Positions 18,501-57,446 of a DNA stretch of 58,692 bases are shown in pieces. Origin of the DNA: Girardia tigrina (Eukaryota). The notes below the pieces were generated by a model. That model was not told the DNA's origin and did no database searches. It saw only the letters and a program-made list of their open reading frames with translations. Within the stretch, counting starts at the first letter, position 1. Every line of letters starts with the position of its first letter. The position numbers were made by a program, and so were the translations under genes. The stretch covers positions 1 through 58,692 of the forward strand of contig MQRK01218208.1 of NCBI GenBank assembly GCA_001938485.1, written 5' to 3'.

Positions 18501-21337
18501 AAAATATCCTGAGCGTCGCCATATTCTGATGGTATATAAAAAAAATCGAAAAAAAACATCAAAAATTAAAAAAAAATTTTGAGACGAAAAATTTAACAAG
18601 CTTTTTATTCCATAAAAGCATAACAACAATTAATTATAGAATTTCAACTTGTCCCTCATCTCTAAGAAAACATTCATGCAAACGTCGTCTGTAGTCGGCC
18701 ACAACGCGTTCACGAAGTGCGCGGTCTCCACAGATTTCATTGACAACTCCTTCAATCGCTGCTCTCAACTCTTCGAGTGTGCTTGGACGTTGTTCGCGAT
18801 GATAAATTCGACCTTTCATGTAGCCCCACAACCAATAGTCACATGCTGTAAGATCTGGCGAGCGAGATGACCATGTAACTGGAGCAGGATGCACCCGTGT
18901 TCTGCGACCTATCCATCGATTTGGAAACTGTTGACCCAACAATTCAAGAAAATCACCAAGAATGTGTGGCGGAGCGCCGTCATGCTGCTCAATGAGATTA
19001 TTGAAATTCGGCCAAGTTTGAAGCTCTGAATTAACGTGCTCTTGATACAATTCAGTCATCCAACGACCATTGATTCCGCGCTCATTTCCTCGTCGCTCCC
19101 AAAAGTATGGGCCAACAACACCTTTGACACCAATTCCCATCCAAACTGTCAATTTTTGAGGATGAAGTCGACGAACATCACACCAATGAGGATTTTCATC
19201 GGCGAGTCTGATTGCATCTTCATCCAATCGATCCAATTCGGTTCGAGCAAACTCAATTCGAGCGGCATAGTCGGTCTCCTCCAAGGCATGAGCCATTTGC
19301 TAATGATAGGGACGTATTTGTAAGTCTTCTTTCAAAATTCGCTGCAAGCTTCTTTGTGACATACGAACTGTTCCGTGATCGTCTTCTTCGCTGTCAGTGT
19401 CGCCAGTTGAAACAAATGGATTGCGTCGAGTTGATAGATGAGGACTTGCAGTAAAGGCTTCACGGACGTCTTCAATGGGTTCTTTGGTGCGTACACGTTT
19501 TGGCTTGTTCTTTCCGCGCTTTCCATGGACACTTCCAGTCGCTCGAAAATCGTCAATCCATTTTACAATGACTCTTTTTTCGGAATCTGCTCGACCATTT
19601 CTTGTTTCACTTCGGAATCGAGTTTTGAGCTGCGCATAATAATAGGCTTCCTCAATAAGCATCAAAACGAGATGAGCTTTTTGCTGATCCGTATACGTCA
19701 TTTGCATCAAATTTTAGGGTAAAACTTTCTAAGTTCATTTAAAAAAACGCTTGTTAAATTTTTCGTCTCAAAATTTTTTTTTAATTTTTGATGTTTTTTT
19801 TCGATTTTTTTATATACCATCAGAATTTGGCAACGTTCAGGATTCTAAAAATGTATACTTTACCTATAAAAAAGTAGGTGGATAAAAAGATCCAATAGAA
19901 AAGTACCTTGGAGTTTATTTTGCGTCACCCTGTACTTATTAATGAATTATTAACTTTACAATTTAAAGTTAAATTTAAAGTTTAAATTATTGAAAATCTT
20001 TATTTGATTTTTTTATTCAATGTAAGTTGTCTACATTTGTGAAATTGTGTCGCGGGCCGTAGTTTGGAGACCCCTGATGTATGTATAAGGATTAATGGGT
20101 TTCTAACCATTCTTACTGTCACAAGGAAATTAATATTCTGTTATCTAGATGTTACTTAAATGCATCACTTTCTTATTTATTAATTCTAAGACAGAAAGTG
20201 AACTGCAGTCCGCTATCCAGAATAAATTGTCTTTATTATTACAAAAATAACAACTGCGGGAAATAATTTTTTTAATTGATAAAAAGGTTCAAGTTATTGT
20301 ATTTAAGATTTTTTTATTTATTTAAAAAATTTTTTTTCTAACTTAGAAGTAAATACTTTTTCATTTTATCACCCTAATGTGAGTCAAAAAAGAAAAGATG
20401 ATAAAGTGTAAAACTTTTAATTGTCTTGTCTCCTAATTATTTTTTATTGAAATTAATGAAACACTTTACAATGAAATTTTGCTTGTGAAAAACAATTAGA
20501 TTATCTCAGTATAGATTATCCTCAATTTAGCTTCACTAATACATTGACGAGGAATCCGTATTTGTAAATAGGAAATGTGATGAAATTACAAATGAAAATC
20601 GTTTTTTGATGGTAATTGAAACATAAAGCTTAAATCATTCTTAGTGTACGTTATTTATACCATTCGGAATATGTCACTAAATTTCAATGAGTAACTCAAT
20701 TGATCGTTGAATTCAACTCTGCTCTCCAAATGAACAAATTGGTAGAGTAATATCACTGTTAAATAAGATGGCCAGTCTTGGCCAAGGCTAATATGACTGA
20801 TTCATGCTCAGTCTCACATTCTATAATTCACTGAGATGTTTTCTGGGTCCAGTAATTAGCTTTCATATTTTATTAGTTTCACATACATTTCTAATATCTT
20901 AAAATAATCAAATTTTGGGACCACAACAAATATACCACCCGTATGAAAGTATATTTTAATTTTTATTATTCTTATAAAAAGTCAAATATTAATTAAATTA
21001 CAAGCCTTAAAATCGTTTCTCGAGAGAACAACTAATGAAACTAGATAAATTAGTCAATGAAGATTTCGAGGAAACAGAAGAATTAAAACATTACAAAGTT
21101 TCCAATAGAGATTCTAATATTGAATGTACTTTAATTTTTTATTATTAAGGATGTTAAAAAATAAAATCTTTTTTATAATCAAATCACCATGAATTTTTGC
21201 ATTTTAAGATTATATGATAATCTTATAAAATTCAAAAAATTTGTAGTAATAAATCTCCCTTTGATTTGAGTTTATATCTAAATCTTTTTTTATGGTATAC
21301 TGGACAAATAGTAATAATTTTTCATTTTTCTTTTTTA

Positions 21338-24300: not shown

Positions 24301-27251
24301 TTGTACAATGTACACGCTTCAGGATTTCATTTTCGATCATCAGCAATTATAGATTAATATGTAAGATAATAAAATGTGAATTGATGGGAGAGTTTTTACA
24401 TCCGGGACAATTAAATTTATAAACTAGATTATGGTTCACAACCAGATAAATGATAAAGGTGCATAAATTATACAATGCATACAGCTGGTCTTCCACTCCG
24501 CCATGTATTATCAATGATTGAGATCGTACAGCACAGGCTCGTAAATGTTCTCGATTCATTATTGAGTCCCTTGATTTCTAATGAATTTGAGGTCAAGGAT
24601 AGCATTGATTTCATTTTGGATCAGATACATAAAGGTGATTCTAAATGTATGATCTCATTTGATGCCCCAAGTTTATTTTACAATTGTATCCATCGACGAA
24701 ATTATTGGTCTATGTGAAATATTATGGGATAATAATTATGACTCTGAATGAAATAATGTTCAAAGATGAAATAAAAACACTTCTTAAATTTTCGGCCAAA
24801 ATGTACTATTCTTTTGAACGATGAATATAATATTCAGAAAGATCGAGTTGCAATGAATTTCTAATTAGCACCAATCTTGGCATCAATTTTTATGAAGTCT
24901 CTTGAGGATAAAATTAGTCCATACTCTGAGGGGAAACCTGTGATCTACAAAAGATGTGTAGATGATATCTTTCTTGTTTGCAGAAACAAATCCCTGATAG
25001 AACCATTCTTAAAATTCTCGAATGGCCTTCAACCTAATTTTAAATTCACTACAAAATTGAAAGTAAATAACAAACTTCCTTTTCTTGACATTCTTGTCCC
25101 TAGTATGAATGGGAAATATCGAACTGAATTATACAGAAAGGCAACAAATAACACAAAATCTCAAAGCTTTTACGAGGAAAAATACAAAGAAGGTATTCTT
25201 AAAGAGTTTGGAGTTTGTCTTTCACTCCTTTTCAATAAATCAAAAACGATATCTGAATTGGAAGCTAATCTAGTTTATAAATTTAATTGCCACGGATGTA
25301 AAAATCGTACACTATAGAGACAAAACATCATCTCAAAACTCGAATTAGTTAGCTGTTAGGAATTCAGAAATGTTATTAAAAGTTTTTGAAAGAATGTAAA
25401 ATTAAATATACCAAGTAAAATATAGAAAATTTATAAAATTTGTAATTATTTGATGATTGTAAAAGAAATTTTAAAATTGTTAAAATTTAACGAAACATAA
25501 ATATTTGTTAATGCTCGTGTAATTTAAAATTATAAAATTTGATTAAAGATTTTGAATTATTAGAGAATAATAGAGATTTTTTAAAATTATAAAATTTGAT
25601 TAAAGATTTTGAATTATTAGAGAATAATAGAGATTTTTTAAAATTATAAAATTTCACGGAATGATTAAGTATTTCATAATTTTAACAAAATAAAAAATTC
25701 ATATTAAAGGTAAAATTTATAAAAGAAAAATAAAATCAAGTATTATTATATGTATTTTTATTTATACCGGTTTAATATTTATAAAACGAATTATTTCTAA
25801 ATAATAAGTTTGTTTTAATATTAGTGTTAATCGTTTTTTTTGAAAAAAATTGTAATGTAATACAATTTGGATTTGATGTCGAAATTAACTTTTAATAATA
25901 AGTCTGAGGATGTTTCAAAAACATTTAACATTATAATACTAATATTAACGAAAATTACACTAAAAGACATAAATAACAATATATTTTGTCATATATTTTA
26001 TTGTCATATATTAAAATCGGTCTTGATAACATATCTGAGTAAACGCAAAAAAGTTTCTCTCAAAACAGTTAGGGCCATATTATAAATGTTGTCTTAGATT
26101 TTAGTAATTTGATTTTTCCACAAATTTTTGAGATGTCCTTTGTATATTGCGTCTAAATGAGTTGATACGATTGTGTCGCTTATTTGTCAAATCGATTTAC
26201 TCCTTTTCTTTCATTGTTAATATCGTATTGAAAATTACAACCTTTACAATAATTTAAGGTATATTTTAAATAATATAATTTAGTAAAAATGTATATGATA
26301 TTTAACCATATAAGTTGATTTATATATTTTAAAATTAATATCTTCAAAATTTTTTTTTCAAAAATAAAATAAAATTTGTTAGGTTTGATGAAATTCTCAA
26401 TGCTAGCGACGGAATAATGGTTGCCAGAGGGGATTTAGGAATAGAAATACCCCCAGAAAAAGTGTTTTTAGCCCAAAAAATGATGATTGGTCGATGTAAC
26501 AGAGCTGGTAAGCCAGTCATTTGTGCTACACAGATGCTGGAGTCCATGATTAATAAACCAAGACCAACTAAGGCCGAAATAAGTGATGTAGCAAATGCTG
26601 TATTGGACGGCGCAGATTGTGTCATGCTATCAGGAGAAACGGCAAAAGGTCTTTATCCTCTAGAAGTTGTTCAAGTTATGCACAGTATTTGTCGAGAAGC
26701 GGAAAATGTAGTTTTTCAAAGTAGATTTTTTGAAGCAATAAAGCACACAATTGACGGGCCGACTGATCAAACTCATACGACTGCTGTTGCGGCTGTGGAA
26801 GCAGCACAGCGTTGTCATGCAGCAATAATCATAGTCATTACAACAACTGGTCGTTCTGCACATTTAATTGCCAAATATCGCCCTACATGTCCCATTTTAA
26901 CAGTTACACGACATCCAATTACTGCTCGACAATCTCATCTTTGGAGAGGTTTACATCCTATTTATTATACCGGTACTTTTGTTTTATAAATTTATGGTTG
27001 ATGAAAGGGTTTTAGAACAACGATTACCAGATTGGACTGAGGATATGGATCGAAGAATTCATTATTCTTTCATATATGCTTTTCGAAGAGGCTTCCTAAA
27101 AATGCATGACTTTGTGGTCATTGTAACTGGTTGGAAAGCTGGAGCCGGTTCTACGAATACTTTGCGAATTGTTAGAATCGAAGAAAATGAGCTCGAGTCT
27201 GGAGTTAGACAGATTGTTAGCGTTCCAATTATATCTGAATTCGAAGATTAA
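550..27251 (+). CDS. Pyk: Pyruvate kinase gene, 6 exons: join(550..712,7666..8067,13743..13885,13956..14083,26383..26972,27016..27251); 1662 nt, 553 aa
   Basis: Splicing at GT-AG sites gives one uninterrupted frame with PK motifs: [10 protein letters not shown]|[102 protein letters not shown]. Confidence 0.96.
749..1552 (+). repeat. Diverged ~135-bp direct repeat pair (~749-885 and ~1418-1552) in intron 1
   Basis: cgtatcgctcctgattcaactgaa...ggctatcga versus cgtatcgctcttgattaaactgaa...ggttatcga. Confidence 0.7.
2040..2660 (-). mobile_element. Degenerate mariner transposase fragment split by a solo LTR
   Basis: Removing the LTR gives [13 protein letters not shown](T)[20 protein letters not shown], the mariner HTH region. 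Confidence 0.7.
2135..2582 (-). mobile_element. Solo LTR (448 bp), TG...TA family, same subfamily as 37464-37913
   Basis: Near-identical reverse complement of 37464-37913; 5-bp TSD GGGAG/GGGAT (1 mismatch). Confidence 0.9.
3126..5400 (-). mobile_element. Decayed LTR retrotransposon gag-pol (zinc knuckles, aspartic protease, RT)
   Basis: CFSCG knuckles, LIDSGSD protease, MDYRELN / [11 protein letters not shown] / [12 protein letters not shown] / YIDD RT motifs; many stops and frameshifts; internal duplications at ~3262/3328 and ~4336/4536. Confidence 0.85.
5400..7180 (-). mobile_element. hAT transposon relic (ZNF862/Tip100-like transposase) with one TIR
   Basis: [41 protein letters not shown] motifs; terminal CAAGGTTCCCTCTAAG ending at 7180. 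Confidence 0.8.
7190..7301. repeat. GACTC/GAGTC-rich subterminal-type repeat, probably a DNA transposon or MITE end
   Basis: Many GACTC/GAGTC units in about 110 bp. Confidence 0.35.
7666..8067 (+). CDS. Pyk: Pyruvate kinase exon 2
   Basis: Acceptor AG 7664-7665; (G)PACKSV...RLNFSHG...[10 protein letters not shown]...[12 protein letters not shown]; donor GTATGA at 8068. Confidence 0.95.
8730..9420 (-). mobile_element. hAT-superfamily-related (hATm-like) transposase C-terminal fragment
   Basis: CQHHVLD (CxxH), [22 protein letters not shown] motifs in two frameshifted ORFs. Confidence 0.6.
10347..10990 (-). mobile_element. hAT 3' end relic
   Basis: TAGGGTGTTC TIR at 10347, TACCGGTA subterminal repeats (two ~70-bp copies), dimerization motif [31 protein letters not shown] at ~10630-10735. 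Confidence 0.75.
12013..12163. mobile_element. 151-bp hAT-type MITE
   Basis: TIRs CAGTGGTTTCCAAC / GTTGGAAACCACTG; 8-bp TSD TATTAAAT (right copy split by the mariner). Confidence 0.85.
12169..13475 (-). mobile_element. Mariner element (Mos1/mauritiana-like TIRs), ~1.3 kb, middle in an N gap
   Basis: 28-bp TIRs TTAGGTGTACAAGTAT..AAT.CGGATT, TA TSD; [10 protein letters not shown] and [15 protein letters not shown]-terminus. Confidence 0.92.
13743..13885 (+). CDS. Pyk: Pyruvate kinase exon 3
   Basis: Acceptor TTAG; (G)[24 protein letters not shown]...FGVEQN; donor GTAATA at 13886. Confidence 0.95.
13956..14083 (+). CDS. Pyk: Pyruvate kinase exon 4
   Basis: Follows a 70-bp intron; [13 protein letters not shown]...[12 protein letters not shown](R); donor GTTGGT at 14084 (phase 2). 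Confidence 0.95.
14424..14951 (-). mobile_element. Solo LTR (528 bp), TG...TA family
   Basis: TGTGAGGAATA...GTTCTTAATA on the minus strand; perfect 5-bp TSD AGAAT (14419-14423, 14952-14956). Confidence 0.9.
15214..15540 (-). mobile_element. Highly decayed Tc1-like end
   Basis: TA+CAGGGTGTCCAAAAAGT TIR-like start; residual IWG...VYKTKP-like codons. Confidence 0.4.
15694..17520 (-). mobile_element. hAT relic (3' TIR plus dimerization domain) hosting a mariner
   Basis: TAGGGATTGC TIR at 15694 with GAAATTCG repeats; [37 protein letters not shown] at ~17095-17230. Confidence 0.75.
15799..16952 (-). mobile_element. Mariner element, 5' part of the transposase deleted, middle in a gap
   Basis: TIRs TTAGGTGTATAACTTAGTTTTTTG, TA TSD; [21 protein letters not shown] and [17 protein letters not shown]. 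Confidence 0.92.
17523..20076 (-). mobile_element. hAT Charlie/SPIN-like (GTF2IRD2/EPM2AIP1-type) element, internally deleted
   Basis: 16-bp TIRs CAGGGGTCTCCAAACT; [35 protein letters not shown] motifs; flanks GTCTAGAG/ATGTATGT do not form a TSD. Confidence 0.85.
18506..19932 (-). mobile_element. Tc1/mariner rosa (DD41D)-like element with long TIRs, nested in the hAT; transposase pseudogene 18634-19710
   Basis: ~95-bp inverted repeats 18506-18601 / 19749-19843; outer end GTCACCCTG+TA at 19932; [30 protein letters not shown] motifs. Confidence 0.88.
23085..23476. mobile_element. Fold-back / MITE-like palindromic element
   Basis: Outer ~55-bp inverted arms (...AACAACCACGTTTTTCAAGCA) and inner ~29-bp arms (TAACCAAAAACGTGGGGC at ~23200 and ~23380). 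Confidence 0.7.
24393..25370 (+). mobile_element. Penelope-like retroelement relic (RT + GIY-YIG endonuclease)
   Basis: [53 protein letters not shown]; inverted copy of the endonuclease piece at 24393-24431. Confidence 0.85.
25523..25655 (+). repeat. Tandem repeat, ~57-bp unit, just over two copies
   Basis: tttaaaattataaaatttgattaaagattttgaattattagagaataatagagattt repeated. Confidence 0.85.
26383..26972 (+). CDS. Pyk: Pyruvate kinase exon 5
   Basis: Acceptor TTAG; (R)[19 protein letters not shown]...[12 protein letters not shown]; donor GTACTT at 26973. Confidence 0.95.
27016..27251 (+). CDS. Pyk: Pyruvate kinase exon 6 (last)
   Basis: Follows a 43-bp intron; (E)[14 protein letters not shown]...[16 protein letters not shown]...FED*. 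Confidence 0.93.
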
Positions 27252-27493: not shown

Positions 27494-30080
27494 CAGTGGC
27501 GTAGGGAAAGGGGGTTTTGGGGATGTAACCCCCCTTGACGTTGTCAAAAAATAATTGGCTTAACATTTTTCAATAAAAACACTATTGTTCAAATGCCTTT
27601 GTGGTTATATAAATATGCTTAAATATATACACGTTATAATTTGTACTACCCTCACCCGTATCCAGATATATAGAGGTGTGGGGAGCTCAGTCTTGTCTGT
27701 CTTTCTCTCTGTCTATTCGTCACAGCACACAAGTGCGTAATGGTGCGGTATATTTAGCCGACTATAGGTACAAGGCTATATAAAGAACATGTATCCATAC
27801 TTCACGCAATTTGTTAATTGTTCCATTCCAGACAACACACGCATACATCTCTCATCCTTTGTCTCATTTCACGTCACTTTATTTGTGCAGTGTTGAGACA
27901 TTTTGTTCCACTTGGACAATATATGAACCGAAAAACTTAAAATTTTGATTAATATTGTTAAAATTTTATTATAAAATTATTGAAAAATAATTTTAATGAA
28001 ATAACCATTTTTAAAAAGGTCATTATGTAAAAAAAGGAAATTGTTTTTGCTTAGTTAAATCAAATCAAATAAATTTGCTTGTGATAAATTTGGATCAAAT
28101 TGAAGTTGTTTATAAAAATTGAATTGAATTTTGGAATTTCAAATACAAATATATAACACAACTGAATGACCTCTAAGAGACCAAGTGTATCTCTCCTGAA
28201 CTATTTCGTTAAAATACCCCGGACCTCGGGTGACACGGAATCCATGATGACGTTTTGAAGACATGTTTGACAGAAAGTGGTAGAAATACGCAGTACACGA
28301 ACCCACACATCCAAAATGAAATCATTGAATCATGTAATGACATAATCGTGCATAGACTGGCAATCAAAATCAACGCGTCTAGCTACTTTTCTATTCTTCT
28401 CAACAAAACGACTGACATGACTGGAATTGAACAATTATCCGTATGCGCTCGCTACATAGAACCAGATACATGTACTGTTCAAGAGGCTTTTCGGCAGTTT
28501 GTACACCTGTATCACGTCACTGGAAAGGGGATTTCCATGGCCATGACCGAAAGTCTCAAATCAGTTGGAGTGGACTTCACAAAAATACGTGGACATGGCT
28601 AAAACTGTGCTGCTTCATTGGGTGGTAATTTCAATGGGGTGCAAGCTCATGTCAAGGAACTAGTTACAACAGCTCTCTATGTACATTGCGCTGCCCACAG
28701 CTTGAACTTGACTGTGTGCAATGCTTGCGATGTGACACCAATAAGAAATTGCATGGACACTAAAAGAAGAATATATGACTTTTTCAATACCCCCAAAAGA
28801 CAGACAGTGATGCAAACAGTGATTGCGGATGTAATTCCAGAAGCACACCATGTGAAGATTAAGCAGCTGTGCGCCACTCGATGTATTGAAAAATAATATT
28901 CCATATCCGCTTTAGTGGAGCTGTTCCCGGCTGTTATAGTTTCTCTAGAAATTATTTCAGAGTGGTCCCATAAGAAAACCTCATCTCTTGCATACCAACT
29001 TCTGCAGGTCTTGAGGGAACCTCAGTTCATTGCCTCCCTCTTCACACTCAAGAAACTATTCAGATTGAGTGTCCTTCTCTGCAAGACCTTGCAAAAGGAG
29101 AACATCGACCTTGCTGAGACAGTGAATCTCGCCGAAGACACTGCTGCCAAATGAAAGCTTTGCGAGTTAATGCTGAGAAGACATTTGCAGAGATTTTCGC
29201 TGATGTCACCAAATGCACTGAAACGTATGAAATTGAAATTCGTGAACCCCGAATAACATCCGCCCAGAGACATCGTTGTAACGTGCCCTCAAACTCACCA
29301 GAATCATATTACCGGAATGCTGTGTTCATTCCATTTTTGCAAGGTTTTATCCAGCACTATGAAGAGAGATTTATTGCTCACAAAAATATTCTGCGTGGTT
29401 TCCAGTGCTTGCTACCCATGGACCCAAGCCAACTGCCCTCTACTGACTATCTAAAAGGCTTCCATGTTCTCACAGAATTTTATTCCGCCGGCATGAGTGG
29501 TTCAAGTGATAACCGCCCTTGTGAAATCAACCTGTGGTACAGAAGGTTATGCCGACTGCAGAAGACAGATTTGCCTAAAAATGCGCTGGAAGGCATCTCT
29601 GCGAGCCATGCGGAAATAATTCCAAATATTTACACACTGTTTCTAATATTAGCCACTCTTCCAGGGTCTACTTGTTCCTGAGAGCGATCCTTCTCATCTT
29701 TCCTTCGTCTCAAAAACTACCTTTGGAACTCTACAGAAGAGACGCGGATGAATGGATTGGCACTGCTATATATCCATCGGGACCTCACTGGAAGTTTTAC
29801 AGATGCACTAAACAAACTTTCACTAAAATCTCGTCGACTAAATCTCCGTTGGATTTGACATGAGTATTAATGAACTTAAAGATGTCATGATGTGATTATT
29901 ATCCTCATTTTAAGTTTTTACCTAAAATGGGTGGGTGAAGTTTTTGACGTTCAGTGCATGGTTGGTAAAAACTTTTACAAACTGTAATATTGTAATATTG
30001 TAATTTACAATATAAAATATGACAGTTCTTTGATTTTCGTTGTTCAAACCCTCCTTTTGACATTCCTGGCTACGCCATTG
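27494..30080 (+). mobile_element. hAT element (Tip100/Zaphod, P52rIPK/ZMYM1-like transposase pseudogene ~28165-29860)
   Basis: TIRs CAGTGGCGTAG / CTACGCCATTG; 8-bp TSD AATTGCAC/AACGGCAC; IQNEII, EQLSVCARY, VHCAAHSLNL, LATLP.ST..ERSFS motifs. Confidence 0.9.
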
Positions 30081-30403: not shown

Positions 30404-31284
30404 TCAATAATTTGATGACATTTTTATTATTTTTGGATTTATTATTTGAATTATTGGATATGCCTTTCTAGTTTGGTACTTTTTTGGCTTTAAAATATCC
30501 GGTCTTTCTCTAATTTGCATTCCCTGAGCTTCAATAAAGTCTGCTGATTTCAAAAATGCCAAATTGCACTCTTTGTAATTAACATTATACAATAAAACTA
30601 ACTCTCCAGCCTGACAACTTGATTCTCTAAAGTTGCAAAATGGATGTGATTGTAATTTTCCAGTTGCATCGTCAAATATTCCATCAAATATTCTTAATTC
30701 TGTTTGATACTCTTCCGAAATCATAATTTTTTTGTATAATTTTTCCTCCCAATTTTACAGGTTCACCTTCACAATTACCATTTACATCTATAACTCCCTT
30801 TCTAATAACTGATTCTCTCATAATTGCTCCTTCTTTAGCTGCGAGTTTTAAAGTTTCATCAATTTTTAATTCTTTCGTTTGAAATGCAGCTACACAATTT
30901 TCAGGTAATATCTTCACAGGTCTGGGAATTGCATTTATCTTGATAATAGAAGTATGACTCCATTTTCCACAATGATAAATATAAGTTGCTCTTTTCACAA
31001 TACATTCTGGTACTTTAACTCTACGAAATCCAGATTCCTAATATAGATGATACAAAACATTTGTTTTTTCTTGAATGTGTAACGGCTAAGCTTCTGAAAA
31101 TTCTGCTACATCTAGAAGAGAATAAATTTTTCCGACTTCAGTCTGAGTACGCTACAAGAGCTTGTGTTTGATTCATTCCAGGAATAATAAATAAGATTAA
31201 AGTAAACCACCACAATTTAGAAGTTTTTTCTTTGTTAAATACATGATTTGTCTTATCATTATTAATATTATCGATACTTTTCAT
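30404..31284 (-). pseudogene. Chuvirus-type / Anakin env-like glycoprotein, N-terminal portion, decayed
   Basis: Manual translation through stops: hydrophobic LWWFTLILFIIPG...ALVAY, then YSLLDVAE, LY*ESGFRRVKVPECIVKRATYIYHCGKWSHTS, GVIDVNGNCEG, HPFCNFRESSC; fits the L.GYDC / SLLDV.EC / C......YYCGMHSH.S / G.C.G pattern. Confidence 0.7.
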
Positions 31285-31302
31285 AGCTTTTTGTAAAAAT
31301 GA

Positions 31303-32154
31303 TTAATCAATTCTTGGAGTCAATGGTTCTTGGATTTCACAAATACTTTCTCTTTTCATGTTATTACCAATTTCCTCATCATCAATACTATCCAGATACA
31401 CTTCTGGTTCACATTTTATTTCATTTTCGGTGATCATTGGTATAATTTCATTAGTATTCCTCATAACATTATTATCCATAACATTTTTACCATAATCATT
31501 AATATATTTTCCCATGAAAATCACTTGAATTTGATTTATTTCACCATCTAAAATCCCATAATCGTAAACGTAATCCTCATCTTCTAATTCTTGATTTCTG
31601 TAAAATAATTTAATCGTTCCAGAATTTTCAATTATTCGTTTCACTTTTTCTCTAAACTTTTTAACTTTAATACACCAATGTTCAGCTATATGAACAATAC
31701 GATTATCAGGAATATTTAATGCTAAAAATATTTTTGATACATTTGAATTTTCTTTACGAAGATACTTCGAAAATTTCTTTAGAAGATCCATAATGTTAGA
31801 ACGAAATTTTGTATTTTTGTGTATTTGAGCTACCAACAAAGGTTTAATTAAATGAATTAATCTTTCAGATATCGTAAACATATTGATTTCCTTTAATAAA
31901 CTAATAATGTATTCACCATCAAGATAATCACATTTAAATTCATTAATTAATCTCAATGCAACATCTTTTATACGCATTTCAGTTTCTAATTCATATTTCT
32001 TTTCGATATCCTTTTCTTGTATTTTAACTTCCACATTATTAATATACGAAAGTAATATTCCATAATCTATTATATATTCATCATGTTCCAATACTTGATT
32101 GTTAAAGATCAAAATAAAATTTTCGATTTCCATGTTACTTACAGTGCGGTTCAT
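31303..32154 (-). CDS. ORF with two ubiquitin-like domains (283 aa), in frame with the glycoprotein downstream
   Basis: LIFNNQVLEHDEYIIDYGI and LFYRNQELEDEDYVYDYGI resemble ubiquitin LIFAGKQLEDGRTLSDYNI; no C-terminal GG. Confidence 0.55.
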   Translation of the reverse strand: MNRTVSNMEIENFILIFNNQVLEHDEYIIDYGILLSYINNVEVKIQEKDIEKKYELETEMRIKDVALRLINEFKCDYLDGEYIISLLKEINMFTISERLIHLIKPLLVAQIHKNTKFRSNIMDLLKKFSKYLRKENSNVSKIFLALNIPDNRIVHIAEHWCIKVKKFREKVKRIIENSGTIKLFYRNQELEDEDYVYDYGILDGEINQIQVIFMGKYINDYGKNVMDNNVMRNTNEIIPMITENEIKCEPEVYLDSIDDEEIGNNMKRESICEIQEPLTPRID

Positions 32155-32465
32155 AAGTAAGTTCGCACCCTAACAATTTCAATATATCTCAATAAAACGA
32201 TGAAAAAGTCTTTATTATTTTAATTGCATTGTTTAAAATGATTAAAATTGATCNNNNNNNNNNNNNNNNNNNNNNNNNNNNNNNNNNNNNNNNNNNNNNN
32301 NNNNNNNNNNNNNNNNNNNNNNNNNNNNNNNNNNNNNNNNNNNNNNNNNNNNNNNNNNNNNNNNNNNNNNNNNNNNNNNNNNNNNNNNNNNNNNNNNNNN
32401 NNNNNNNNNNNNNNNNNNNNNNNNNNNNNNNNNNNNNNNNNNNNNNNNNNNNNNNNNNNNNNNNN

Positions 32466-34996: not shown

Positions 34997-37900
34997 TGTA
35001 AGGATGATTTATAAATTATGATTGTTGTTGATTTAATTCGTGTAACTTTGGTATGATGTTCGGATGTGTTTATGACTCTCTCTGTGTATATATTAATTGT
35101 ATTTTTATTTAATGTATATGTGAGGGATAATTTGAAATGTTGTAAGTTTGTTGTTTGTATGCTGTTTAGATTTGTGACTCTCCTACTCAGATGGGATTGA
35201 TATGTTATTTGATTGATTATTTGAATCTAATATAATTAATTTAATGATATTAATTTTAAGTACTAATTAATTAAAGTTTGATAATTATATAATATCATAA
35301 TTATAATAAAGCATACTATCAAGTTGAACTTAAATCAAGTTGAATCAAAGATAAAAACGGCATTCTCGACAAAGAATTGTCAATATTGTTTTAAAAGAAT
35401 GCCTTTCGGAAGAGCGGTCGCTTCGGCTACCTTTCAAGAACAAATGGTAAAAATTCTTGTGGAATTGAACTGGATGGAAGCAGTCGTATACCTACATGAT
35501 ATCTTGATATTTTCTAAAGATAAGAACGGACATCTACAAAGAATATAGAATGTGTTTCAAAAAATCAAAGAATCAGGTTTGAGGATAAATCCAGAGAAAT
35601 GTCAACTTCTAGTAGAAAAGACCAAGTTTATGGGCTACGTAATAAGTAAAGATGGTATAGAAACTGATATAACAAAGATTAATGCGATTAACAAGTTTCA
35701 AAACCCATAATGTATTAAACATCTAAGGAGTTTCTTGGGTTTGACAAATTATTACAGAAAATTCATAAAAGATTATACAAGATATTCGAAAGTTTTAGAA
35801 GGTATGTGTGGTAAAAACAAGGATAAGAAAATAATATAGACAAAAGAATGTGACGAAGCTTTTCAGAGATTAAAAGAAAGAATGGTTCAAACTCCAGTCT
35901 TGGCGTATCCAGACTTCGATAAAGAATTTATATTGGATACAGATGCAAGTTTCGATACGATTGGAGCAGTACTGTCACAAAAAGATTCGAGTGGAAGAGA
36001 AAGAGTTATTGCATATGGTTCTCATAAGATGAATAAACATGAACTTGGTTATTGCATTACCAGAAAAGAATTACTAGCGATATATTATTTCACTCAGCAT
36101 TTTAAGCATTTCTTATATGGGAAAAGATTCTTGTTGAGAACAGACCACAAAGCTATTACGTTTATTATGACCACAAAGAACCCAATAACACCGCAATTTC
36201 AAACATGGATAAATTTTCTCAGCGGTCTTGATATGAGAATGGAATACAGGAAAGGTGAAAGACACTCAAATGCAGATGCTATGTCGAGAAACTCTTGTGA
36301 ATTATGTAGTCAATGTCAAACAACACATGAAGAAGCAAAAAAATGAAAGATTAAAACTCGAATTCTAGCGATACACGAAGAACCAAATAGTTTCAAATGG
36401 CAGAATGATAATGAAGAAATCGAACAAATCAAGAAAGATTTGAAACAAGGAATAACAAATAAATGGAAACTGAAAGATGATATTGTAGTAACGGAAAATA
36501 ATAAGTACTGGATCCCGAGAACAAATAGAACCGATTTTATTGAAGATATGCATAAGATGTTATGTCATGCTGAGAGTAAAAAGGTTTTTAACTACCTCAG
36601 AGATGATTTTGATATGGAAAANNNGAGAGAAAAGATAAAAGAAGTTGTTCAAAGTTGCATAAATTGTCAAAAGCGAAAAACACTAACTGCGAAAACAAAA
36701 GAAAGACATATTAAGTAATTTGCAGATGAACCTTTTCAGAAGATATATACCGACTTTTGTGGCCCATTCAAGAGAAATGTTAATGGATACCAGTATATTT
36801 TGGCAATAATTGATCAATTTAGCCGATATATTAGCTTGAACTCAGTTGCTCACCGAGACGAGAGAACACTACGGAAAATATTGCTGGATAGATGGATATA
36901 TAAATATGGATCACCTAAAGAAATCCATGTGGATAGAGGCAAAACATTTGAATCAGAACTATTTAAAGAAACACTGAAGAAGTTTAAGATAGAAGTATTT
37001 AATTCAAGCCTGTATCACCACAATACCAATGAAATTATAGAACGACAATTTAGAACAATTAGAGATGCTCTTAATATCAGAATAAAGGATGGAACGCATA
37101 GAGATTGGACGGAAGTATTGTCAGAAATAGAATTTATGATGAATAGTACCATTCAAGCTACGACAGGTATCTCACCAGCAGAAATAATATATGGAAGGAA
37201 ATTAAGACATTGGTTGAAAAATAAAGAAGATAAAGGAAACCAAATGGGAAAAGAAGGAAAAGCTCCAGAAATGAGAAGAATTTTCAAAGTTGGAAACCAG
37301 GTATTGATAAAGATAGAAAATGCATCAAAAGAAGACGACCGATATATTGGCCCTGCAATGATAATAAGACGGAGACATGTAAGAAGTTACGAATTGCAAC
37401 TCGACAATGGTAAAATATTAATAAGAAATGTAGAATGGCTAAAGCCATTTAAATCGAGGGGGATGTGAGGAATAATTGTGAATGTTGTAAGTTTGTTGTT
37501 TGTATGCTGTTTAGATTTGTGACTCTCCTACTCAGATGGGATTGATATGTTATTTGATTGATTATTTGAATCTAACGAAATTAATTTAATGATATTAATT
37601 TTAAGTACTAATTAATTAAAGTTTGATAATTATGAATTTTATTAATATTTTCAGTAAACGATTTTAACTTATTAAATTTAATATATTTTAAAAATTAATG
37701 TTTATTTAAAAAATTACATAATGTCTTTTTATCCAATAAAATTATGAGAAATTAAAATGTAATATTAAAATTTCCCATTCGTTGATTGTTTCATATTTGA
37801 ATATGTAATCAAAAACTATATCAATCAAAGAAAGATGACCTCTGAAAATTGTTGTGAAGAATCTGTTTGTGTTGTAAATAAATGTTTGCATTCAAATTGT

Positions 37901-40900
37901 GATGTTGTTAATAGTATATTTTATAATAAATATGTGTTGTTTAAATATTTCAAATTAACTTGAAAAAGAAGCACAAAATTTGAAATTGAAAAACTGTGGA
38001 TTATAAAATAAATTTTTTTGTTAATGAAAACGTTTTTTGATTTCGGATTTATTAATAAAACCGGGAAGGAAAATAAATGTCAATTTTCGAAAATTAACAT
38101 GGCGACCACGACCATTGCGACACCGAATATTGAGGGTCCCGAAAAATTCGATGGAACCGAATCGAAACTTGAGTAATTTATAAAGAACTTCGACCGTTAT
38201 ACTCAAATTATTGGCCTTGCAGAAGAAAGGAAGGTAATTGTTGTAGCTGCATATTTAACGTCCACAGCAGTTTTAAAATATGATGAAGCACCCGGAATTA
38301 CATTCGATGAAAAATTAAAAGCAGCATTTACGAAACCAAAAACGATATTAGATATAATGAATGAACTTGTTAATCTCAGATTGGAATCTCAGGATCCGGA
38401 TATTGTCTTCAAAAAAGCAGATGAACTTATTGAAAAGCTCTGTGAAAAGAAAATTGGAAAGAAAGAATTATCAAATTTAGTATATATAAATGTTGTCAAT
38501 GACTATGAAGTTAAAAGAGAACTGGTGTTGAGAGGCACATCTGATACCAGAGATATCAAATATATCGTAAAAAGAGTTCATAAATTAAAGAAAATGAGCG
38601 AAGAAACGGTTGCAGCATATACTACAAATGATAACAAATGGAAAACTGTAAAGAAAAAAAGTATCAGCCAAGAGAGGAAACTCGTCAAGTCAGGAGAGAT
38701 ATGGTACAAGAAAGTAAAAAACAGATACATCTAACACATTTCATTGTGCGTTGTTGGGCATGTCATAAAGAAGGACATGTAAGAAGAGAGTGTCCAGAAG
38801 TCAAATGTTTATTTTGTCATAAAAAGGACACTATAAGAGTCAATGTTATGAGAATCCGCATAGATTTGAGGAAAAAGCAGAAAACAGAAGAAGAAAAGAA
38901 AGAATCGGGAATAAATTTAATTCATGCAGATCCCAAAGTAGAGGACCAAAGAAAAAAGGTACTCAGCGGCAGTTATAAATGAAAACGAGTATGATGGCCC
39001 GAACGAGATGCAAGAAATGAACAAAATGTATGGAAAAACAGAATTTTTCAACAGAAACTACCAAAATTCAAAATGTGAGTTTGAGTGTATAGAAAAATGC
39101 TATGACTATGTGGAGCATTTTGATAAGAATGTAATATTTGATTTAAGTAGAGAAATTAAAACAAAAACACAAAGAAAGAATTTTAATCCCTTAGCAATAA
39201 AAGTAATGACAATAAAGACCTATTGAAAATAGATGTATTGAAAATAACTTGTTTGAATATAAGATACGATAAACTAAATGAACGACCAAATATTACGTTC
39301 CAAATAAATGATAGATATTGATTGTGTTTTAAATACTGGCGCCAGGGTAAATTTAATTAAGGCCGACTTATTAAAAAGTATGACAGATGTGAAATTAAAA
39401 GATTCAACGAAACACATATATTGTGCAAACGACTCGGAATTGATAACTTATCGTACTGTTAAATTAATCATCAATATAAAAGAAGTAGAAACAAATGAGT
39501 TTTATGTTGTTAAAGAAATTGTTCCGGAGATGATTGCCTGGGTTGACTTTCTTAAGAAATTCAACATACGACTACCAAAAGTTATGCAAGGATAACGACA
39601 GATTTTGCACATCAAAGACAACAATTTAGACAAAGAAAGAATGATTCGAAGGAAATAATTGTATAAAAGTATAAATGAAAGAGAATTATGGGATATTTTA
39701 ATTGAATACAAGTCCATTTTTATGGCAAAGAAATGGGATGTTGGAAAGACCGATTACACGAAACATCTGATTCAAACACAAGGTGATCCAATACTTGTGA
39801 AGCCGTACAAAAAGTTGAAACACTTTGAAGAAAAATTGGAAGAAATCCTCAGAAATCTGGAAGAAAATGATATAATAGAGAAACGCATATCACCTTGGAA
39901 TTTTCCTTTAGTGTGCGTATGGAAGAAAGAGAAACAAGAAATCAGATTGTGTGTGGATTTTCGTCAGCTTAACAAAGTAACAATAAGACCAGTATTTCCA
40001 ATGCCAAATATCGATGATATGCTGAATACATTAAATGGAGCACAATATTTCAGTACCATTGACCTAAGAAACGCTTACTATCAAGTAGAACTAGAAGAAG
40101 AATCAAAAGAAAAACAGCATTTTCGACAAAAAGTGGACAATATTGCTTTAAAAGAATGCCATTTGGAATTGCGGCAGCACCAGCAACATTTCAGGAACTT
40201 ATGGTAAAAGTTCTTGGAAACTTAAATTGGAAGGACTCAGTGGTATATTTAGATGACATATTGATATTTTCACGAAATAAAGAAGACCATATTCATCGTA
40301 TAAAAAATGTTTTTCAAAGAATAAAAGAATCAGGCTTCAAAATCAATCCTGAAAAGTGTCAATTTTTAGTGCGACAGACAAAATTCTTAGGTTACATTAT
40401 TAGTTCAGAAGGTATTCAGACGGATGAAATAAGATAGAAGCCATTAAACAATTTCAAATTCCATCTTGCATCCATTTACGAAGTTTCTTAGGCCTGATCA
40501 ATTATAATCGAAAGTTTATCAAGGACTACGCAAGATACTAAAAAGTATTGGAAGGAATGTGTGGTAAAAATAAGAACAAAAAATTAATATGGTTGGAGGA
40601 ATGTAATGAAGCGTTTAATAAATTGAAAGGAATGATGATGACAACACCAATTTTGGAATATCCAGATTTTAATGAAAACTTTATTTTGGACACCGATGCC
40701 AGTTTTGACACTATTGGCACAGTTTTATCTCAAATAGATGCTCATGGTAGAGAAGAGGTCATTTCTTATGGATCCAATAAGATGAACAAGCATGAGCTTG
40801 GTTATTGTATCACCAGGAAGGAACTGTTAGCAATTTATTATTTTACCCAACACTTCAAGCATTTCCTTTACGGGAAAAAATTCTTACTAAGAACAGACCA

Positions 40901-41021
40901 TAAGGCGATTACGTTTATGTTAACAACAAAGAAGCCGATTACACCTCAATTCCAAACGTGGATTAATTTTCTTAGTAGTCTTGACATGGACATTGAATAT
41001 AGAAAGGGTAATTTGCAATAA
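34997..41021 (+). mobile_element. Ty3/Gypsy element E: 5' LTR 34997-38099 (split by element A), PBS at 38100, gag ~38099-38980, pol ~39250-41021, truncated in RNase H
   Basis: TGTAAG...TTAACA LTR, PBS TGGCGACCACG; PEKFDG, CCHC knuckle CWACHKEGHVRREC, LNTGA protease, LCVDFR, MPFGI, YLDD, FILDTDAS; many stops. Confidence 0.88.
35119..37913 (+). mobile_element. Ty3/Gypsy element A, internally deleted: partial 5' LTR 35119-~35290, RT-RNase H-integrase 35324-37468, PPT, 3' LTR 37464-37913
   Basis: Perfect 5-bp TSD GTATA (35114-35118, 37914-37918); PPT GAGGGGGA; DTDAS, HHCC zinc finger, D-D-E core, GPA motif. Confidence 0.92.
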
Positions 41022-41106
41022 ATTGTAGTTACATAATGGCAATAAAATGTAATAGAATAAAATATAAACAGTAAAGTGTTGCTCTGTCCCGTACTTCGAA
41101 GGTGGC

Positions 41107-42545
41107 TCAAGGAGTTGAATTAGGGAAAGTTGAATCGTCGTCAGTTGTTGGAATGCAATCGCAATTGGAATTGAAATTTTCAACTTCTTCGTCACATAAT
41201 TTCTTTTCTGAGTGCGCATATTTATAACATTTCTGTTTAATTGGTGTCTCATCTAGCAATGGAATGGGGTGTTTCACGACTTTGCACTCCGTCAAATCGT
41301 AATCGGATTTTGCGAAAACATTTTTATATTTCATTATCAAAGCTATGACTTTACTCCGTTCTTCGGGCGTTAAATTCTCATTGTNAATTTTTATGTCACT
41401 TTCATTTATTTCTTCTCCTTCGGATGGTTTCACAATTTCGACTTCTGTCGTATGTATGATGTGACCCATTCTAGAATTCGGTCTTATTTTCACGTCTTCA
41501 TCGTTAAAATTTGTCAATTGTATTGGTATCTCGCCCCTTTCATTTATGGCCACTAATGTTGCCGCGGTTGCTACTTTATAACTCTTATCGAAATGTTCAT
41601 ATGGCTCGTAAATTACCTCTCCTTGACCTTTCACTGGGCTTTCTACACACATATACACGGTCGATCTCCTTGGAATTACAATTTCTTCTTTCGCTCGTAC
41701 ATCGACTGTTTCGTATGGAACTCCACTTTTGTGCATCAATTTCATTGTTGATAGATCNNNNNNNNNNNNNNNNNNNNNNNNNNNNNNNNNNNNNNNNNNN
41801 NNNNNNNATCTCCTTGGAATTACAATTTCTTCTTTCGCTCGTACATCGACTGTTTCGTATGGAACTCCACTTTTGTGCATCAATTTCATTGTTGATAGAT
41901 CCAATACACCTTGGGGTATCAGTCTCAGAAATAAATCGGTTCCTATTAGAACTGGTACATTTATTTCTCTTGCTATATGAATTTCAGTATTTATCCTTGT
42001 CGACATATAACTTATTTCACACTGTAATTTTCCTTTAAAATTGATCGTTTTTCCATTTACTCCTACAGCACGATTATCATTGTCTTGCAATATTACGTCT
42101 TTATATTCTGTAGGTAATATAACATCATATCGGATTACCGAAATATTTGCTCCGGTGTCGATTAAAGCTTTCACTTTCCGTCCGTTTATTTTTACGTCTA
42201 TTTTCATCAATGGGCCTTGTTTCTCTGTCAATGCATTGACTGAATACGTTCCATAGATTAAATTATTTTTTGGTATTGCATAATTTATTGGAGTGGCTTC
42301 CACAGTTGACTCTGACGTTGTTACTTGTTCTGTTCCGCTTCTGATAATGCATGGAATTATTAATGATGATGGTCGAGCTGGTTTCCCTATTTCGCTTATT
42401 TTTTCGGTCGTTTTTTGTACGTACTCTTTGTCGAATGAAGTTCGAAGCTTTGCTTCTTGTTTTAGAGTTTTTAATTGCGACATTGCCTCGTTTGCTCCGT
42501 CTCCTCTCCTTCGAGCCTCCTCGGCTAGATTTTTGATAAAGCTGA
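41107..42545 (-). mobile_element. Gypsy fragment D: protease, dUTPase-like spacer domain and start of RT
   Basis: ALIDTGANISVI, LIGTD, EIVIPRRS...IPIQLTN....VKI..NSRMG, FAKSDYDL..C.VVKH.I.L....PIKQ. Confidence 0.8.
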
Positions 42546-45500
42546 GATTTTTCCATAACTCTTGTTGCCTTCAAAAGTTTTTCCCCTATCTGATAAAAAT
42601 GATCTGGGTTTCACAAATCGATAAATCCATCTATTTTTAATAGCAGCAATCAACGTGTTTTCATCTTGATTACGAAGTGGCACCAATACAACGACCTTGC
42701 TAAATTTATCAACCAAGTACATATTTCTTTCCCGTTTTAGAAGGTCAAAAATGTGCAATATCCAATACAACTTCTTCAAATAATGTTTTATCATTTCGAG
42801 GTAAAAATGTCTCCTTAGATGGTGTTGTTTGTACCTTCCGTTTTGCACAAATAACACATTCTATAGAAACTTTCTCAATTGTCTGTCGCATTTGTGGCCA
42901 GAAATAGATATCCCGCATATATTCATACAACTTCTTATATCCTATGTGACATAAATCTTGATGAATGTACTGAATTAATCAATGTTGAGCAGCTTCTGGG
43001 ACAACCACGCGTTTTATATGTCCATCCCGATAGAACACCAATTCATCTTCTAATATCAAGTGATTAATGTGTTCCCACAAGGGACCTTGTAACTGCAAGT
43101 CGTATTGAAAACCCAACAGATCTTCAATCCATGTCTGAAATTGAGAACTGAGTGGTATGCTTGTCTGGGACATAAATAAAAGTGCTTTATGATCGGTACG
43201 AGCCAAGAACTTTTTTCCATATAAATAATGCTTGAAATGCATCATGTAATCTCTTAATGCTAGCAATTCCTTTCTGGTAACACAGTAGCCCTTTTTGTGC
43301 TAAATCAGGGTTCTCAATCCGTAAACTATCACCAGTTCCGATCCATCTTCTTGAATTTGACTTAATACCCCTCCAATAGCAGAGATGCTGGCATCTGTAT
43401 CTAGCAACATTTTTTGGTTAATATTAGGGAAGTATAATACCGGACTTGTAGAAAGACACTTTTTAACTTCATCAAAACTGTCTGCACACTCCTGTGACCA
43501 GTAAAATTTCTCTTTAGCGGCACTGACCGCATATAAAGACTTTGATATTTTAGCAAAATCTTTGATAAATCGCCGGTAGTAATTGATAAGACCCAAGAAA
43601 GAACGCAATTGAGTTGCACATTTTGGAACCGGTGCTTCATTAATCGATTTGATTTTATCTTCACAGGTTTCTATTCCTTTGCTACTTACTACATGTCCTA
43701 AAAATCTAACTTCAAACTCCTTCAAACGGCACTTCTGAGAATTGATTTTAAGACCTGCACTTGCAGTACGACTAAAATCTTCCTCGAGCAGAACATCATG
43801 ACCCTTCTCAGAGGAACTGTACACTTCATCCAAAAACACAAATACTCCTTCATACAGCATATCGTGAAATATTTGATGCATTAAAGCTTGAAAAGTTGCT
43901 GGAGCAGTGCACAATCCAAAAGGTAAGCGATTTTCAATTTTGACTCCTCTGTCAACTTCATTTGGTAGTAAGCACTACCCAAGTCGATAGAAGAGAACAT
44001 AACTGCTCCACTCAGTGCATCCAAAAGGCCGTAGGTATCTGGCACCGGAAATGTGAATTTTTCTGTAATCGCGTTTAATGGTCGGAAATCCAAGCACAAT
44101 CGAATATTATTATCCTTTTTCTTTACTACTACCAGATGAGAGTTCCATGGATTTTGACACGGCTTTATGACTTGATTTTCTAATTAACTGCTTTATCAGG
44201 ATATTCACTTCAGTTTCCAAATGTAGAGGACATCTTCTCTGATTTATGGCCACTGGTGAACCAGTTGTTTTAATGTGGTGTTTTAAAACCGCTGTGTGTC
44301 CCAAATCGAAAGTAGAAGCCATGAATATATCTCCATATTGTCGAAAAATATTGTGGATATTCTTTGAAGCAAAAATATTAAGTGCTTTGTCCACTCTCAA
44401 CTGAGTATTTATCTTTACAGCTGCTTCTTGTGTTTGCATCACGAATACTTCTTTAAGATATACTCTGAACATCTTCATGATGTCTATGCCCCCGATAAAG
44501 ACTGGTATTAAGGCCTTCACAACATATACTTCAATTGTATTCTGTTTGTGGCCCCATTGAACGTTGATTTTACTTTTATCTAAACATGCTCCACTGCCCG
44601 ACGAAAAAGCACCCATCAACTTCTCACTTGACGGTTTCAACGGTGGACCACCCATTTCCTTCCAACATGATACATCCATTATTGAAACGGAGGCTCCTGA
44701 ATCCCACAACATCTCGAACTCTGTCTCATTGCATACAACCCTGCTCCCTAATCTACCATCTCTCTTCTGATACATCTTCTTATTCTTCTCTGTATTTTTT
44801 CTATCTCTGAAATTTATTTCCTTTATTGATGCAACCCGACGGACGAGATAGCTATCGTGGGTTGCGGACCATTTTTTTCTTGCTTCCCAAATTGAACTTC
44901 TGAGTTGCTGTCTGAATCATTAAAATCCTTGATGTCTTCAATCAAATCTTCTTCTTCTTGTATGCATAAAATTGGTTGTGAGGTGGCTTCTCTCCTATTG
45001 GATTTGTGTATTTTATAACAATCTCGAAAATTATGACCTTATTTCCCACAAACTAGGCATCTTCCATTTAAAGGACAGTCAATTCTTTTATGTCCCGCTT
45101 CTCCACAACAAAAACAGTGACCCGGTTTTAAAAGTTCAGGCCGTGGTTCTTGTCTTCCCCAAGCCCTATAACAATATCTCTTGGCAATCGACTTCATTGA
45201 TTCGTTCGGTAAATTTCGTTGTTGGTTCGCTAGTATTGGCTGATTATTGGAATTTTCATTTTTAATTATTAATTGTTTGTTTTCCCTTCATTGTGGTTGG
45301 TGAAATCCCATTTTCCGAGGTTGATAATTATCCATGTTTAGTTTTCTAACAGCATCAGAATATTCTATTTGGTAAAACTGCTGCGACTGATTTAGGAGTC
45401 AATTGCTCTAGCATACTGGCTGTTAGGTTGGGAATTATCTTCCATTCTAAATCAAAAACAAAAAAAACTTGCAAAAATTTATTAATCTAACAGTTTAAAT

Positions 45501-53312: not shown

Positions 53313-53465
53313 ATATATTTTTATATTATATATTTTATATGTTATATTTTATATGTTACATAAAACAAAAGTTGTTTTTTACAAGGTATGAATAAAGATA
53401 GGTATAAGACAAGTATTTTTAACAAACATTTATTAACATATGTACAATATTTACAAGTATATCAT

Positions 53466-53540
53466 TCACAAAAGATAATATCCATGAGCTAATGTACTTA
53501 CTCCATCTGACAAAATATGTCGTTTATCGTCGAAGTAGTC
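53466..53540 (-). pseudogene. Inverted second copy of the pPolB C-terminus (3' UTR continues to ~53369)
   Basis: DYFDDKRHILSDGVSTLAHGYYLL* versus DWFDDKRHILSDGISTLPHGYYLL* at 56120-56194. Confidence 0.9.
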
Positions 53541-53550
53541 TTTTCTTGAA

Positions 53551-56194: not shown

Positions 56195-56344
56195 ATGATA
56201 TACTTGTAAATATTGTACATATGTTAATAAATGTTTGTTGAAAATACTTGTCTTATACCTATCTTTATTCATAAACTTGTAAAAAACAACTTGTAAAAAA
56301 TATATAAAATATATAAAATATAAAATATTCAAGAGCACATTACG

Positions 56345-57401: not shown

Positions 57402-57446
<45 letters not shown>

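Follow-up and report, generated by a model that had tools for sequence, protein, structure and literature searches.

Locus and features

The window considered here, that is, the whole stretch of 58,692 nucleotides (nt) that was analysed (contig MQRK01218208.1 of the Girardia tigrina assembly GCA_001938485.1), carries on its minus strand at 30445-32141 an internal remnant of an env-carrying Ty3/Gypsy element, which reaches from the end of the Gag region into the first third of Env and is cut at both ends. The best overall explanation, to which we assign a probability of about 85%, is that this remnant belongs to a high-copy Ty3/Gypsy family in which gag, a module of two ubiquitin-like (Ubl) domains with a helical domain between them, env and pol are encoded in one frame. 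The features of the remnant are:

32140..32253, plus strand: terminal piece of a DNA transposon of Tc1/mariner-like type, inserted at TA, which supplies the apparent ATG at 32154 (29-mer matches)
32020..32139, minus strand: Ubl domain 1, C-terminal part; the N-terminal part was lost at the transposon insertion
31738..32019, minus strand: 94-residue helical domain, predicted to resemble the LEDGF integrase-binding domain (IBD) and the N-terminal domain of TFIIS (TND); suggestive, with no single test significant
31504..31737, minus strand: Ubl domain 2, lacking a C-terminal di-glycine (the window copy weakly matches PF11976, Rad60-SLD, and, with E=4.6e-4, PF00240)
31216..31503, minus strand: linker, acidic and then basic, with the stop 31303-31305 that is private to the window copy
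31159..31215, minus strand: internal hydrophobic signal or anchor before Env (from sequence and the hydropathy of sister frames; putative cleavage site)
30445..31158, minus strand: truncated N-terminal part of an Env of gB/chuvirus type (class III), broken by two frameshifts and two stops (PF24664)

A blastn comparison with sister copies covers 30445 to 32141 or 32142, with 91-95% identity to copies of the window's own subfamily and 71-83% to those of others. The minus-strand frame from 32154 to 31306 comprises 283 codons and ends at the stop 31303-31305, past which the same frame reads on to a hydrophobic stretch (KLWWFTLILFII...QALVAY), all of which had been described correctly in an earlier reading of the letters alone (the sequence-only reading). 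The glycoprotein resumes after a frameshift, and its proposed chuvirus-type nature is confirmed by a match of the piece 30687-31037 to PF24664 (Monjiviricetes_fusion, E=1.2e-10). The single break assumed for it was an underestimate, as the Env part holds frameshifts near 31147 and near 30730 and stops at 31086-31088 and 31038-31040. The last codons, from 30445 down to 30404, are unrelated sequence, since the homology to sister copies stops at 30445. The window copy is a dead, doubly truncated fossil of a known kind of element.

The start of the open reading frame (ORF), which had been read as the element's own, is of foreign origin. The ATG at 32154 lies inside a Tc1-like terminal repeat (32140-32168), and this 29-mer has 875 exact matches in the genome (control: 0). 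The transposon end is 100% identical to unrelated places of the genome, and as the homology to sister copies ceases at 32140-32142, Ubl1 is short of approximately its first 30 residues. We take the segment 32140..32253 to be Tc1-like from its TA-CAGTG end motif; a Pfam search of this transposon end gave no match to back the label.

Sister copies and the stop at 31303

Searches of the host's own genome with the two halves of the remnant gave at least 150 matches (150 scored of 2022 candidates) and at least 146 matches (140 scored of 2604), which are lower bounds and not copy numbers. Flanks were taken for the best matches and for those with long open frames, and this sample leans to well-kept copies. 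The codon opposite the window's stop was a sense codon in 66 of 67 places on 64 contigs, a few of which are possibly assembly duplicates, and the sole stop was the window's own, which answers in the affirmative the question whether this stop is absent elsewhere. Four sequencing runs, two of them recorded as RNA and two guessed to be, come from three studies and have contigs that cover this part with 88-99% identity and bridge the position of the stop, none of which shares it; contigs from RNA libraries are no proof of transcription. Local duplications of the Ubl module were seen in single copies beside assembly gaps (G000:C240222, C218865 and C209153) and are probably assembly artefacts.

Family anatomy and reading frame

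Domains were mapped over 43 contig stretches. The N-terminal half of the order consists of a capsid-like Gag region, three to four CCHC knuckles, a charged spacer, Ubl1, the helical domain, Ubl2 and an acidic linker, and is continued by the hydrophobic signal, the Env ectodomain, a membrane anchor, a charged tail, an aspartic protease, reverse transcriptase (RT), RNase H and integrase. After the integrase follow a second signal-like stretch, FN3-like repeats, an anchor and a stop; an exonuclease ORF of its own and the 3' long terminal repeat (LTR) come last. The span from the start of gag to the end of the exonuclease is approximately 11.5 kb, that of gag-pol 8.5 kb and that of the whole element approximately 14 kb. 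The Gag capsid of the family has no match in Pfam; the capsid-like region is called Gag from its position, the zinc knuckles and its likeness to the protein P0008 (Retrotrans_gag, E=0.0077). In the interval between protease and RT, sister copies (e.g., L046:4742-5617, minus strand) contain about 100 extra residues with a weak match to PF03539, which may, as a guess, be the dUTPase-like region noted for Burro, an element to which we return below.

The order of the pol domains is protease, RT, RNase H, integrase, with Pfam matches above the cut-off to RVT_1, RT_RNaseH, RT_RNaseH_2, Integrase_H2C2 and rve. Classed by these sequences, the family is Ty3/Gypsy and not BEL/Pao. In BEL/Pao elements env stands after pol. 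The origin from a BEL/Pao (Anakin) element that had been proposed therefore has to be given up, with env lying 5' of pol and the pol domains being of Gypsy type. The search for gag-pol and LTR flanks was successful in sister copies; LTRs and primer site are not on the window fragment itself. A pair of LTRs was found in one of 11 self-compared stretches, both beginning with TGTTGG and being 92% identical over 239 nt before a later insertion. In this paired copy the 5' LTR ends in CA before the primer site, and a purine tract precedes the 3' LTR, which is interrupted. Six of nine copies exhibited a primer-like site, in one of them with a complementarity of 18/18 to the host tRNA-Trp plus CCA.

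Three natural copies let the frame be followed across the joints: L048 leads from Gag via both Ubls into Env (1235 codons, short assembly gaps included), L041 begins at the signal, passes Env and reaches the protease motif (816 codons), and L083 goes from RNase H by way of the integrase to the second signal (691 codons). Junctions were counted as open per examined, with gap-spanning cases set aside. Around the module they were open in 21/22 (spacer-Ubl1), 26/28 (Ubl1-middle domain) and 30/30 cases (middle domain-Ubl2), further upstream in 6/10 (capsid-knuckles) and 15/18 (knuckles-spacer), and downstream in 10/20 (Env-tail), 11/16 (tail-protease), 14/16 (protease-RT) and 6/11 (integrase-FN3 part). 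The Ubl and Env halves stand at a constant spacing (median of 346 nt over 22 junctions), with a linker of 115 codons.

Three observations speak against one continuous frame. The junction between Ubl2 and Env was open in only 8 of 22 cases, with 13 in frame and 9 shifted. A stop between capsid and knuckles is common to two copies, the sole shared lesion seen. Finally, none of the sister stretches examined carried the whole frame free of gaps and breaks, the frame being pieced together from one junction to the next. The low count at the Ubl2-Env junction is ascribed to decay, because the indels are scattered: of 14 close copies, seven have no indel in this linker beyond the window's own, and seven have frame-changing indels, which fall at eight different places, none of them common to copies. 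A programmed frameshift in the linker was considered and, given this scatter, rejected. Taken together, we consider the identity of the element and its single frame to be very likely. As the frame extends into Gag on one side and into protease and Pol on the other, the layout is that of a Gag-Env-Pol polyprotein and not of an env with a leader, and the Ubls are the tail of Gag. The polyprotein of Ubls, linker, signal and glycoprotein that the sequence-only reading had envisaged thus holds for the shared frame and the internal signal, and fails for its start at the Ubls.

Env, post-integrase module and exonuclease

In sister frames PF24664 is matched with E=2.8e-79 and 2.4e-84. The Env ectodomain sits, judged from hydropathy only, between the signal, whose hydropathy peaks at 2.0-2.4 in three sister frames, and the membrane anchor. 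The best public relative of this Env, P0021, has an identity of 38% to it over a length of 585 residues, and directly before its signal stands a BCL2-like domain.

Past its end, the integrase frame goes on with a stretch resembling a signal and with FN3-like repeats (PF00041 below the cut-off, E=1.1e-4), and closes with a strong anchor and a stop (examples at G000:C225927:30995-32225, C252468:65200-66189 and C225110:16593-17568). This FN3-like module is predicted to be a second surface protein of the polyprotein. The exonuclease ORF before the 3' LTR (G000:C225927:32628-33893 and 12 more contigs; 13 of the 43 stretches) encodes an N-terminal part of approximately 160 residues that belongs to no assigned family, followed by a DEDD-type exonuclease (PF00929, E=1.9e-6 and 6.9e-9).

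The Ubl-helical-Ubl module

PF00240 matched in all 11 unbroken sister segments (best E=3.6e-9), and so did PF11976, the latter below the cut-off in those displayed. AlphaFold2 was used to model one unbroken sister segment from an alignment of 11 sequences (predicted local distance difference test, pLDDT, of 83); in this model a beta-grasp fold is followed by four helices and a second beta-grasp fold. The two Ubl folds proposed from the letters are therefore real, and their supposed adjacency is not, as the 94-residue helical domain between them had gone unnoticed. Compared with ubiquitin-fold proteins, both Ubls reach Z scores of 12-13 at a root-mean-square deviation (rmsd) of 1.3-1.7 Å and an identity of 10-26%; Ubl2 in the sister-copy model reached a Z of 13.1 (rmsd 1.5-1.7 Å). 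A C-terminal di-glycine was found in neither Ubl in any of the 11 segments, because of which the Ubls are regarded as integral domains.

The ratio of non-synonymous to synonymous substitution rates (dN/dS) of the module is 0.24-0.25 between subfamilies at a dS of about 1 (14, 14 and 4 pairs) and 0.34 within the subfamily of the window; for the middle part, values of 0.18-0.31 were obtained between subfamilies. Non-independence of the pairs and the choice of the 11 segments for being unbroken are to be held against these values. The module is under purifying selection. A word-indexed protein search for the Ubl region among longer proteins yielded none in 838 candidates, which is weak evidence, and the ESM Atlas gave no usable match.

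The middle helical domain

Several comparisons suggest that the middle domain adopts the fold of the TND family. A Foldseek search placed IBDs of LEDGF/p75 at all of ranks 1-15 (probability up to 0.99, TM score 0.6-0.7, rmsd 2.4 Å), with TFIIS LW and HRP2 domains ranking below. In VIA-align, the LW domain of yeast TFIIS was matched with a Z of 10.1 (rmsd 1.7 Å over 78 residues) and several other TNDs with 7.8-9.4; overall, the structural fits to TNDs have an rmsd of 1.7-2.6 Å over 76-85 residues. A sequence profile put LEDGF first of 177,635 PDB sequences (E=0.49 and 0.31, and 0.017 with five remote relatives added), the identity to the LEDGF/TFIIS family being about 20%.

A number of results pull in the other direction. 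Among the models of the lone domain only one of five was confident (best pLDDT 89.7, the other four 57-68). The Foldseek E-values for LEDGF lie at 0.14-0.55. In VIA-align, HEAT-type bundles reach Z scores of 10.0-10.4 and so tie with or exceed the TNDs, in a range that the tool deems common for helical bundles. The model has four DSSP helices versus five in the TND as described in the accessible part of PMC9987994. Pfam gave no LEDGF or Med26 match for the middle domain, and its profile did not match the host's LEDGF-like exon. Overall, a TND-like fold appears probable from these models and profiles, with no single test being significant.

The host itself encodes a LEDGF-family domain (L105, G000:C243564:8939-9106, plus strand; PF11467, 27.2 bits, just over the cut-off), which is located after a long charged region. 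BTB, MLKL, BAG and BCL2, which had given weak matches for the middle domain, were dropped after the searches with the lone domain; folds not on this list may still apply.

A profile search of 1.84 billion representatives resulted in 18 matches, two of which are close fragments of the family. P0005-P0008, P0010 and P0016 hold parts of the helical-Ubl unit, P0005 and P0007 likewise in the order Ubl-helical-Ubl, and most other matches are generic polyubiquitin-type proteins. In P0008 and P0010 the unit lies within full Gag proteins, and it hence recurs in distant Gags. The C-terminal stretch of P0010 looks BCL2-like by eye; Pfam gave no match for it.

Proposed mechanism and alternative readings

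We propose that the likely product is a single polyprotein, anchored in the membrane, that contains Gag, module, Env and Pol. Following Ubl2, the hydrophobic stretch would serve as an internal signal and direct Env into the lumen of the endoplasmic reticulum, while Gag and the module would stay cytosolic and tied to the Env-bearing membrane, by which capsid assembly could be coupled to Env. The C-terminal anchor of Env would bring protease and Pol back into the cytosol, and cuts in the chain by signal peptidase and by the protease of the element would free the domains. A difficulty of this topology is that Env ends in two hydrophobic stretches and that a cytosolic Pol requires one of them not to cross the membrane; one of the two must, therefore, be re-entrant or amphipathic.

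The module itself is most likely an accessory host-interaction unit, which would occupy the slot that in Burro is taken by Ubl, BCL2 and domains of that sort. The binding partners of TNDs are disordered, acidic motifs in transcription factors, and the TND of LEDGF is the tether hijacked by lentiviral integrases, as far as the accessible part of PMC9987994 describes them. For this reason a role in host interaction, as decoy or tether, is considered most likely. As a best guess, the TND-like domain would bind acidic TND-interacting motifs of host transcription factors in such a role, and the non-conjugatable Ubls would serve as binding or proteasome-targeting domains. Binding of TND-interacting motifs is a prediction that we put forward tentatively, with the odds rather against it. 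More speculative still, and in our estimate improbable, is the idea that an on-board LEDGF-like domain, once freed, steers integration to transcribed chromatin via elongation factors, or decoys these factors, and that the FN3-like protein is the attachment partner of the gB-type fusogen. When a complex between the middle domain and two integrase cores of the same natural copy was predicted, without alignments, the score was 0.00, which is evidence neither way. If the TND reading were true, a retroelement would carry the very host module that lentiviruses use for integration targeting.

The main rival to a host-interaction role sees in the middle domain no more than a generic helical spacer, with the whole module serving just to link Gag structurally to the membrane anchor. 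The equal scores of HEAT-like bundles and TNDs in VIA-align, the lack of a Pfam family and the missing match to the host's LEDGF-like exon are all in line with a spacer. However, profile and Foldseek independently put the same protein first, the middle part shows a dN/dS of only 0.18-0.31 between subfamilies, and the unit is kept in distant Gags. A mere spacer is possible, though we consider it unlikely.

The Ubls could also be processing signals at which host deubiquitinases split Gag from Env. Pestivirus polyproteins have ubiquitin insertions behind which host deubiquitinases cut in this manner. Such insertions are indeed among the viral fold matches of the Ubls, which do stand at a polyprotein boundary. 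Deubiquitinase-driven processing is nevertheless unlikely because no di-glycine is present in the 11 segments; the identity of only 10-26% and the element's own protease and signal-like site argue in the same direction, so that little weight is left for this idea.

Even less probable is a stand-alone env of BEL/Pao type, captured in the manner of Anakin, with its own cytosolic Ubl-Ubl leader, which was the proposal of the sequence-only reading. Ubls and Env do share a frame, Env does belong to PF24664, and env might still be expressed from a spliced sub-genomic message that begins close to the Ubls. Against it, the apparent ATG belongs to a transposon, the frame is open upstream into Gag (21/22 and 15/18) and continues downstream into protease and Pol, and env stands before a Gypsy-type pol. 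That a fragment of an endogenous chuvirus glycoprotein landed by chance beside a host ubiquitin-like gene, for which solely the name of the Pfam family speaks, is hardly credible in view of the constant spacing of the two halves at 22 junctions, which lie within LTR-bearing gag-pol elements.

Other features of the window

Elsewhere in the window, the plus strand carries exons of a pyruvate kinase gene at 7632-8087, 13601-13912 and 26339-27251 (PF00224, E=1.6e-56 for 26339-26986; the others by motif). A decayed Polinton-like element at 52513-58450 contains pieces of a protein-primed DNA polymerase B (PF03175, E=8.1e-14) and is bounded by long inverted repeats (95% over 554 nt). At 35100-50500 there are several remnants of Gypsy gag-pol, nested and with LTR-like direct repeats, which are unrelated to the family described here (pol identity of 25-47%). 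By motif reading, remnants of a hAT-like transposase at 28234-29681 (plus strand) and of a mariner-like transposase at 18506-19843 were noted, for which Pfam gave no match at E 0.01.

Comparison with known systems

The glycoprotein of the family is of the broad chuvirus-like type that is also found in Anakin and other mosquito BEL/Pao elements, according to the available portion of PMC13524379; unlike Anakin, the family belongs to another superfamily. An exonuclease ORF of DEDD type, separate from pol and 3' of it, is known from the Juno and Vesta LTR elements of bdelloid rotifers, where ORF3 encodes a DEDDy exonuclease (PMC5408684, as far as accessible). Most of those elements lack a true env in that account, whereas the present family pairs the exonuclease with an in-frame gB-type env. 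With the LEDGF/p75 IBD and the TFIIS N-terminal domain, as presented in the accessible part of PMC9987994, the middle domain shares the predicted fold and a weak sequence register; unlike these host nuclear proteins, it is encoded by a retroelement.

Literature searches for a LEDGF/TND domain in a retroelement, for a Ubl in a planarian Gag, for the envelope of Burro and for FN3 together with an exonuclease retrieved no report of these features, with most subscription journals and Repbase lying outside their scope. Within this scope, we found no report of the Ubl-TND-like-Ubl module, of the FN3-like module after the integrase or of their combination with an exonuclease ORF. The layout that had been thought undescribed is hence apparently new in its predicted LEDGF/TND-like middle domain and its FN3-like module, and not in a Ubl before an in-frame env, which is already in print, since Burro is described in this way in the portion of PMC6431247 available to us.

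The closest described elements are GAG-ENV-POL Ty3/gypsy elements with a gB-type Env, which have been reported from nematodes, bryozoans and flatworms (Chary and Hayashi, PMC13524379, in the parts accessible). Like Smed_errantivirus_1 and _2 therein, the family combines a Ty3/Gypsy pol, the order gag-env-pol and a gB-type Env, and the lengths listed for these planarian elements fit a gag-pol span like the 8.5 kb of the family. A count by eye gives 58 identical residues out of 103 between the Env row of Smed_errantivirus_2 (supplement file 3) and the Env fragment of the window, and the gaps in both follow the same pattern. Ubiquitin is mentioned neither in the main text nor in the seven supplements of PMC13524379; the accessible parts of the same source likewise contain no mention of a polyprotein or in-frame fusion, no fibronectin in the supplements and no LTR or primer site for the planarian elements. 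The Gags of the Smed errantiviruses may well carry the same module unannotated, the comparison having been made via Env and not via Gag sequences.

Burro/GYPSM1, a group of giant planarian Gypsy elements, has been described as encoding a single polyprotein in which env sits in frame, flanked by gag and pol, and which also contains BCL2 and a Ubi2/SUMO-like motif, PF11976 (Arkhipova and Yushenova, PMC6431247, accessible portion). The family resembles it in the single polyprotein, the in-frame position of env and the Ubi2/SUMO-like motif upstream of env. Unlike Burro, which according to that portion exceeds 30 kb with more than 25 kb of internal sequence, the family measures about 14 kb, has two Ubls and possesses, beyond the integrase, both an exonuclease ORF and a membrane module of FN3-like type. 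Of the Burro features, BCL2, BIR, MATH and ankyrin had no Pfam match in the family's frames; at the place of Burro's BCL2-like domain, between Ubl and env, the family has just the linker of 115 codons. P0010, with Gag and the helical-Ubl unit, and P0021, with a BCL2-like domain, signal and a 38% identical Env, link the family to Burro and are probably Burro-type themselves. The presence of the helical-Ubl unit in Burro-like Gags suggests that this unit is old and has been under-annotated as only 'Ubi2/SUMO-like'. The family is close to the described planarian errantiviruses and related to Burro without having Burro's defining features, and it fills in the anatomy of the flatworm-type gag-env-pol elements, which have so far been catalogued as three ORFs.

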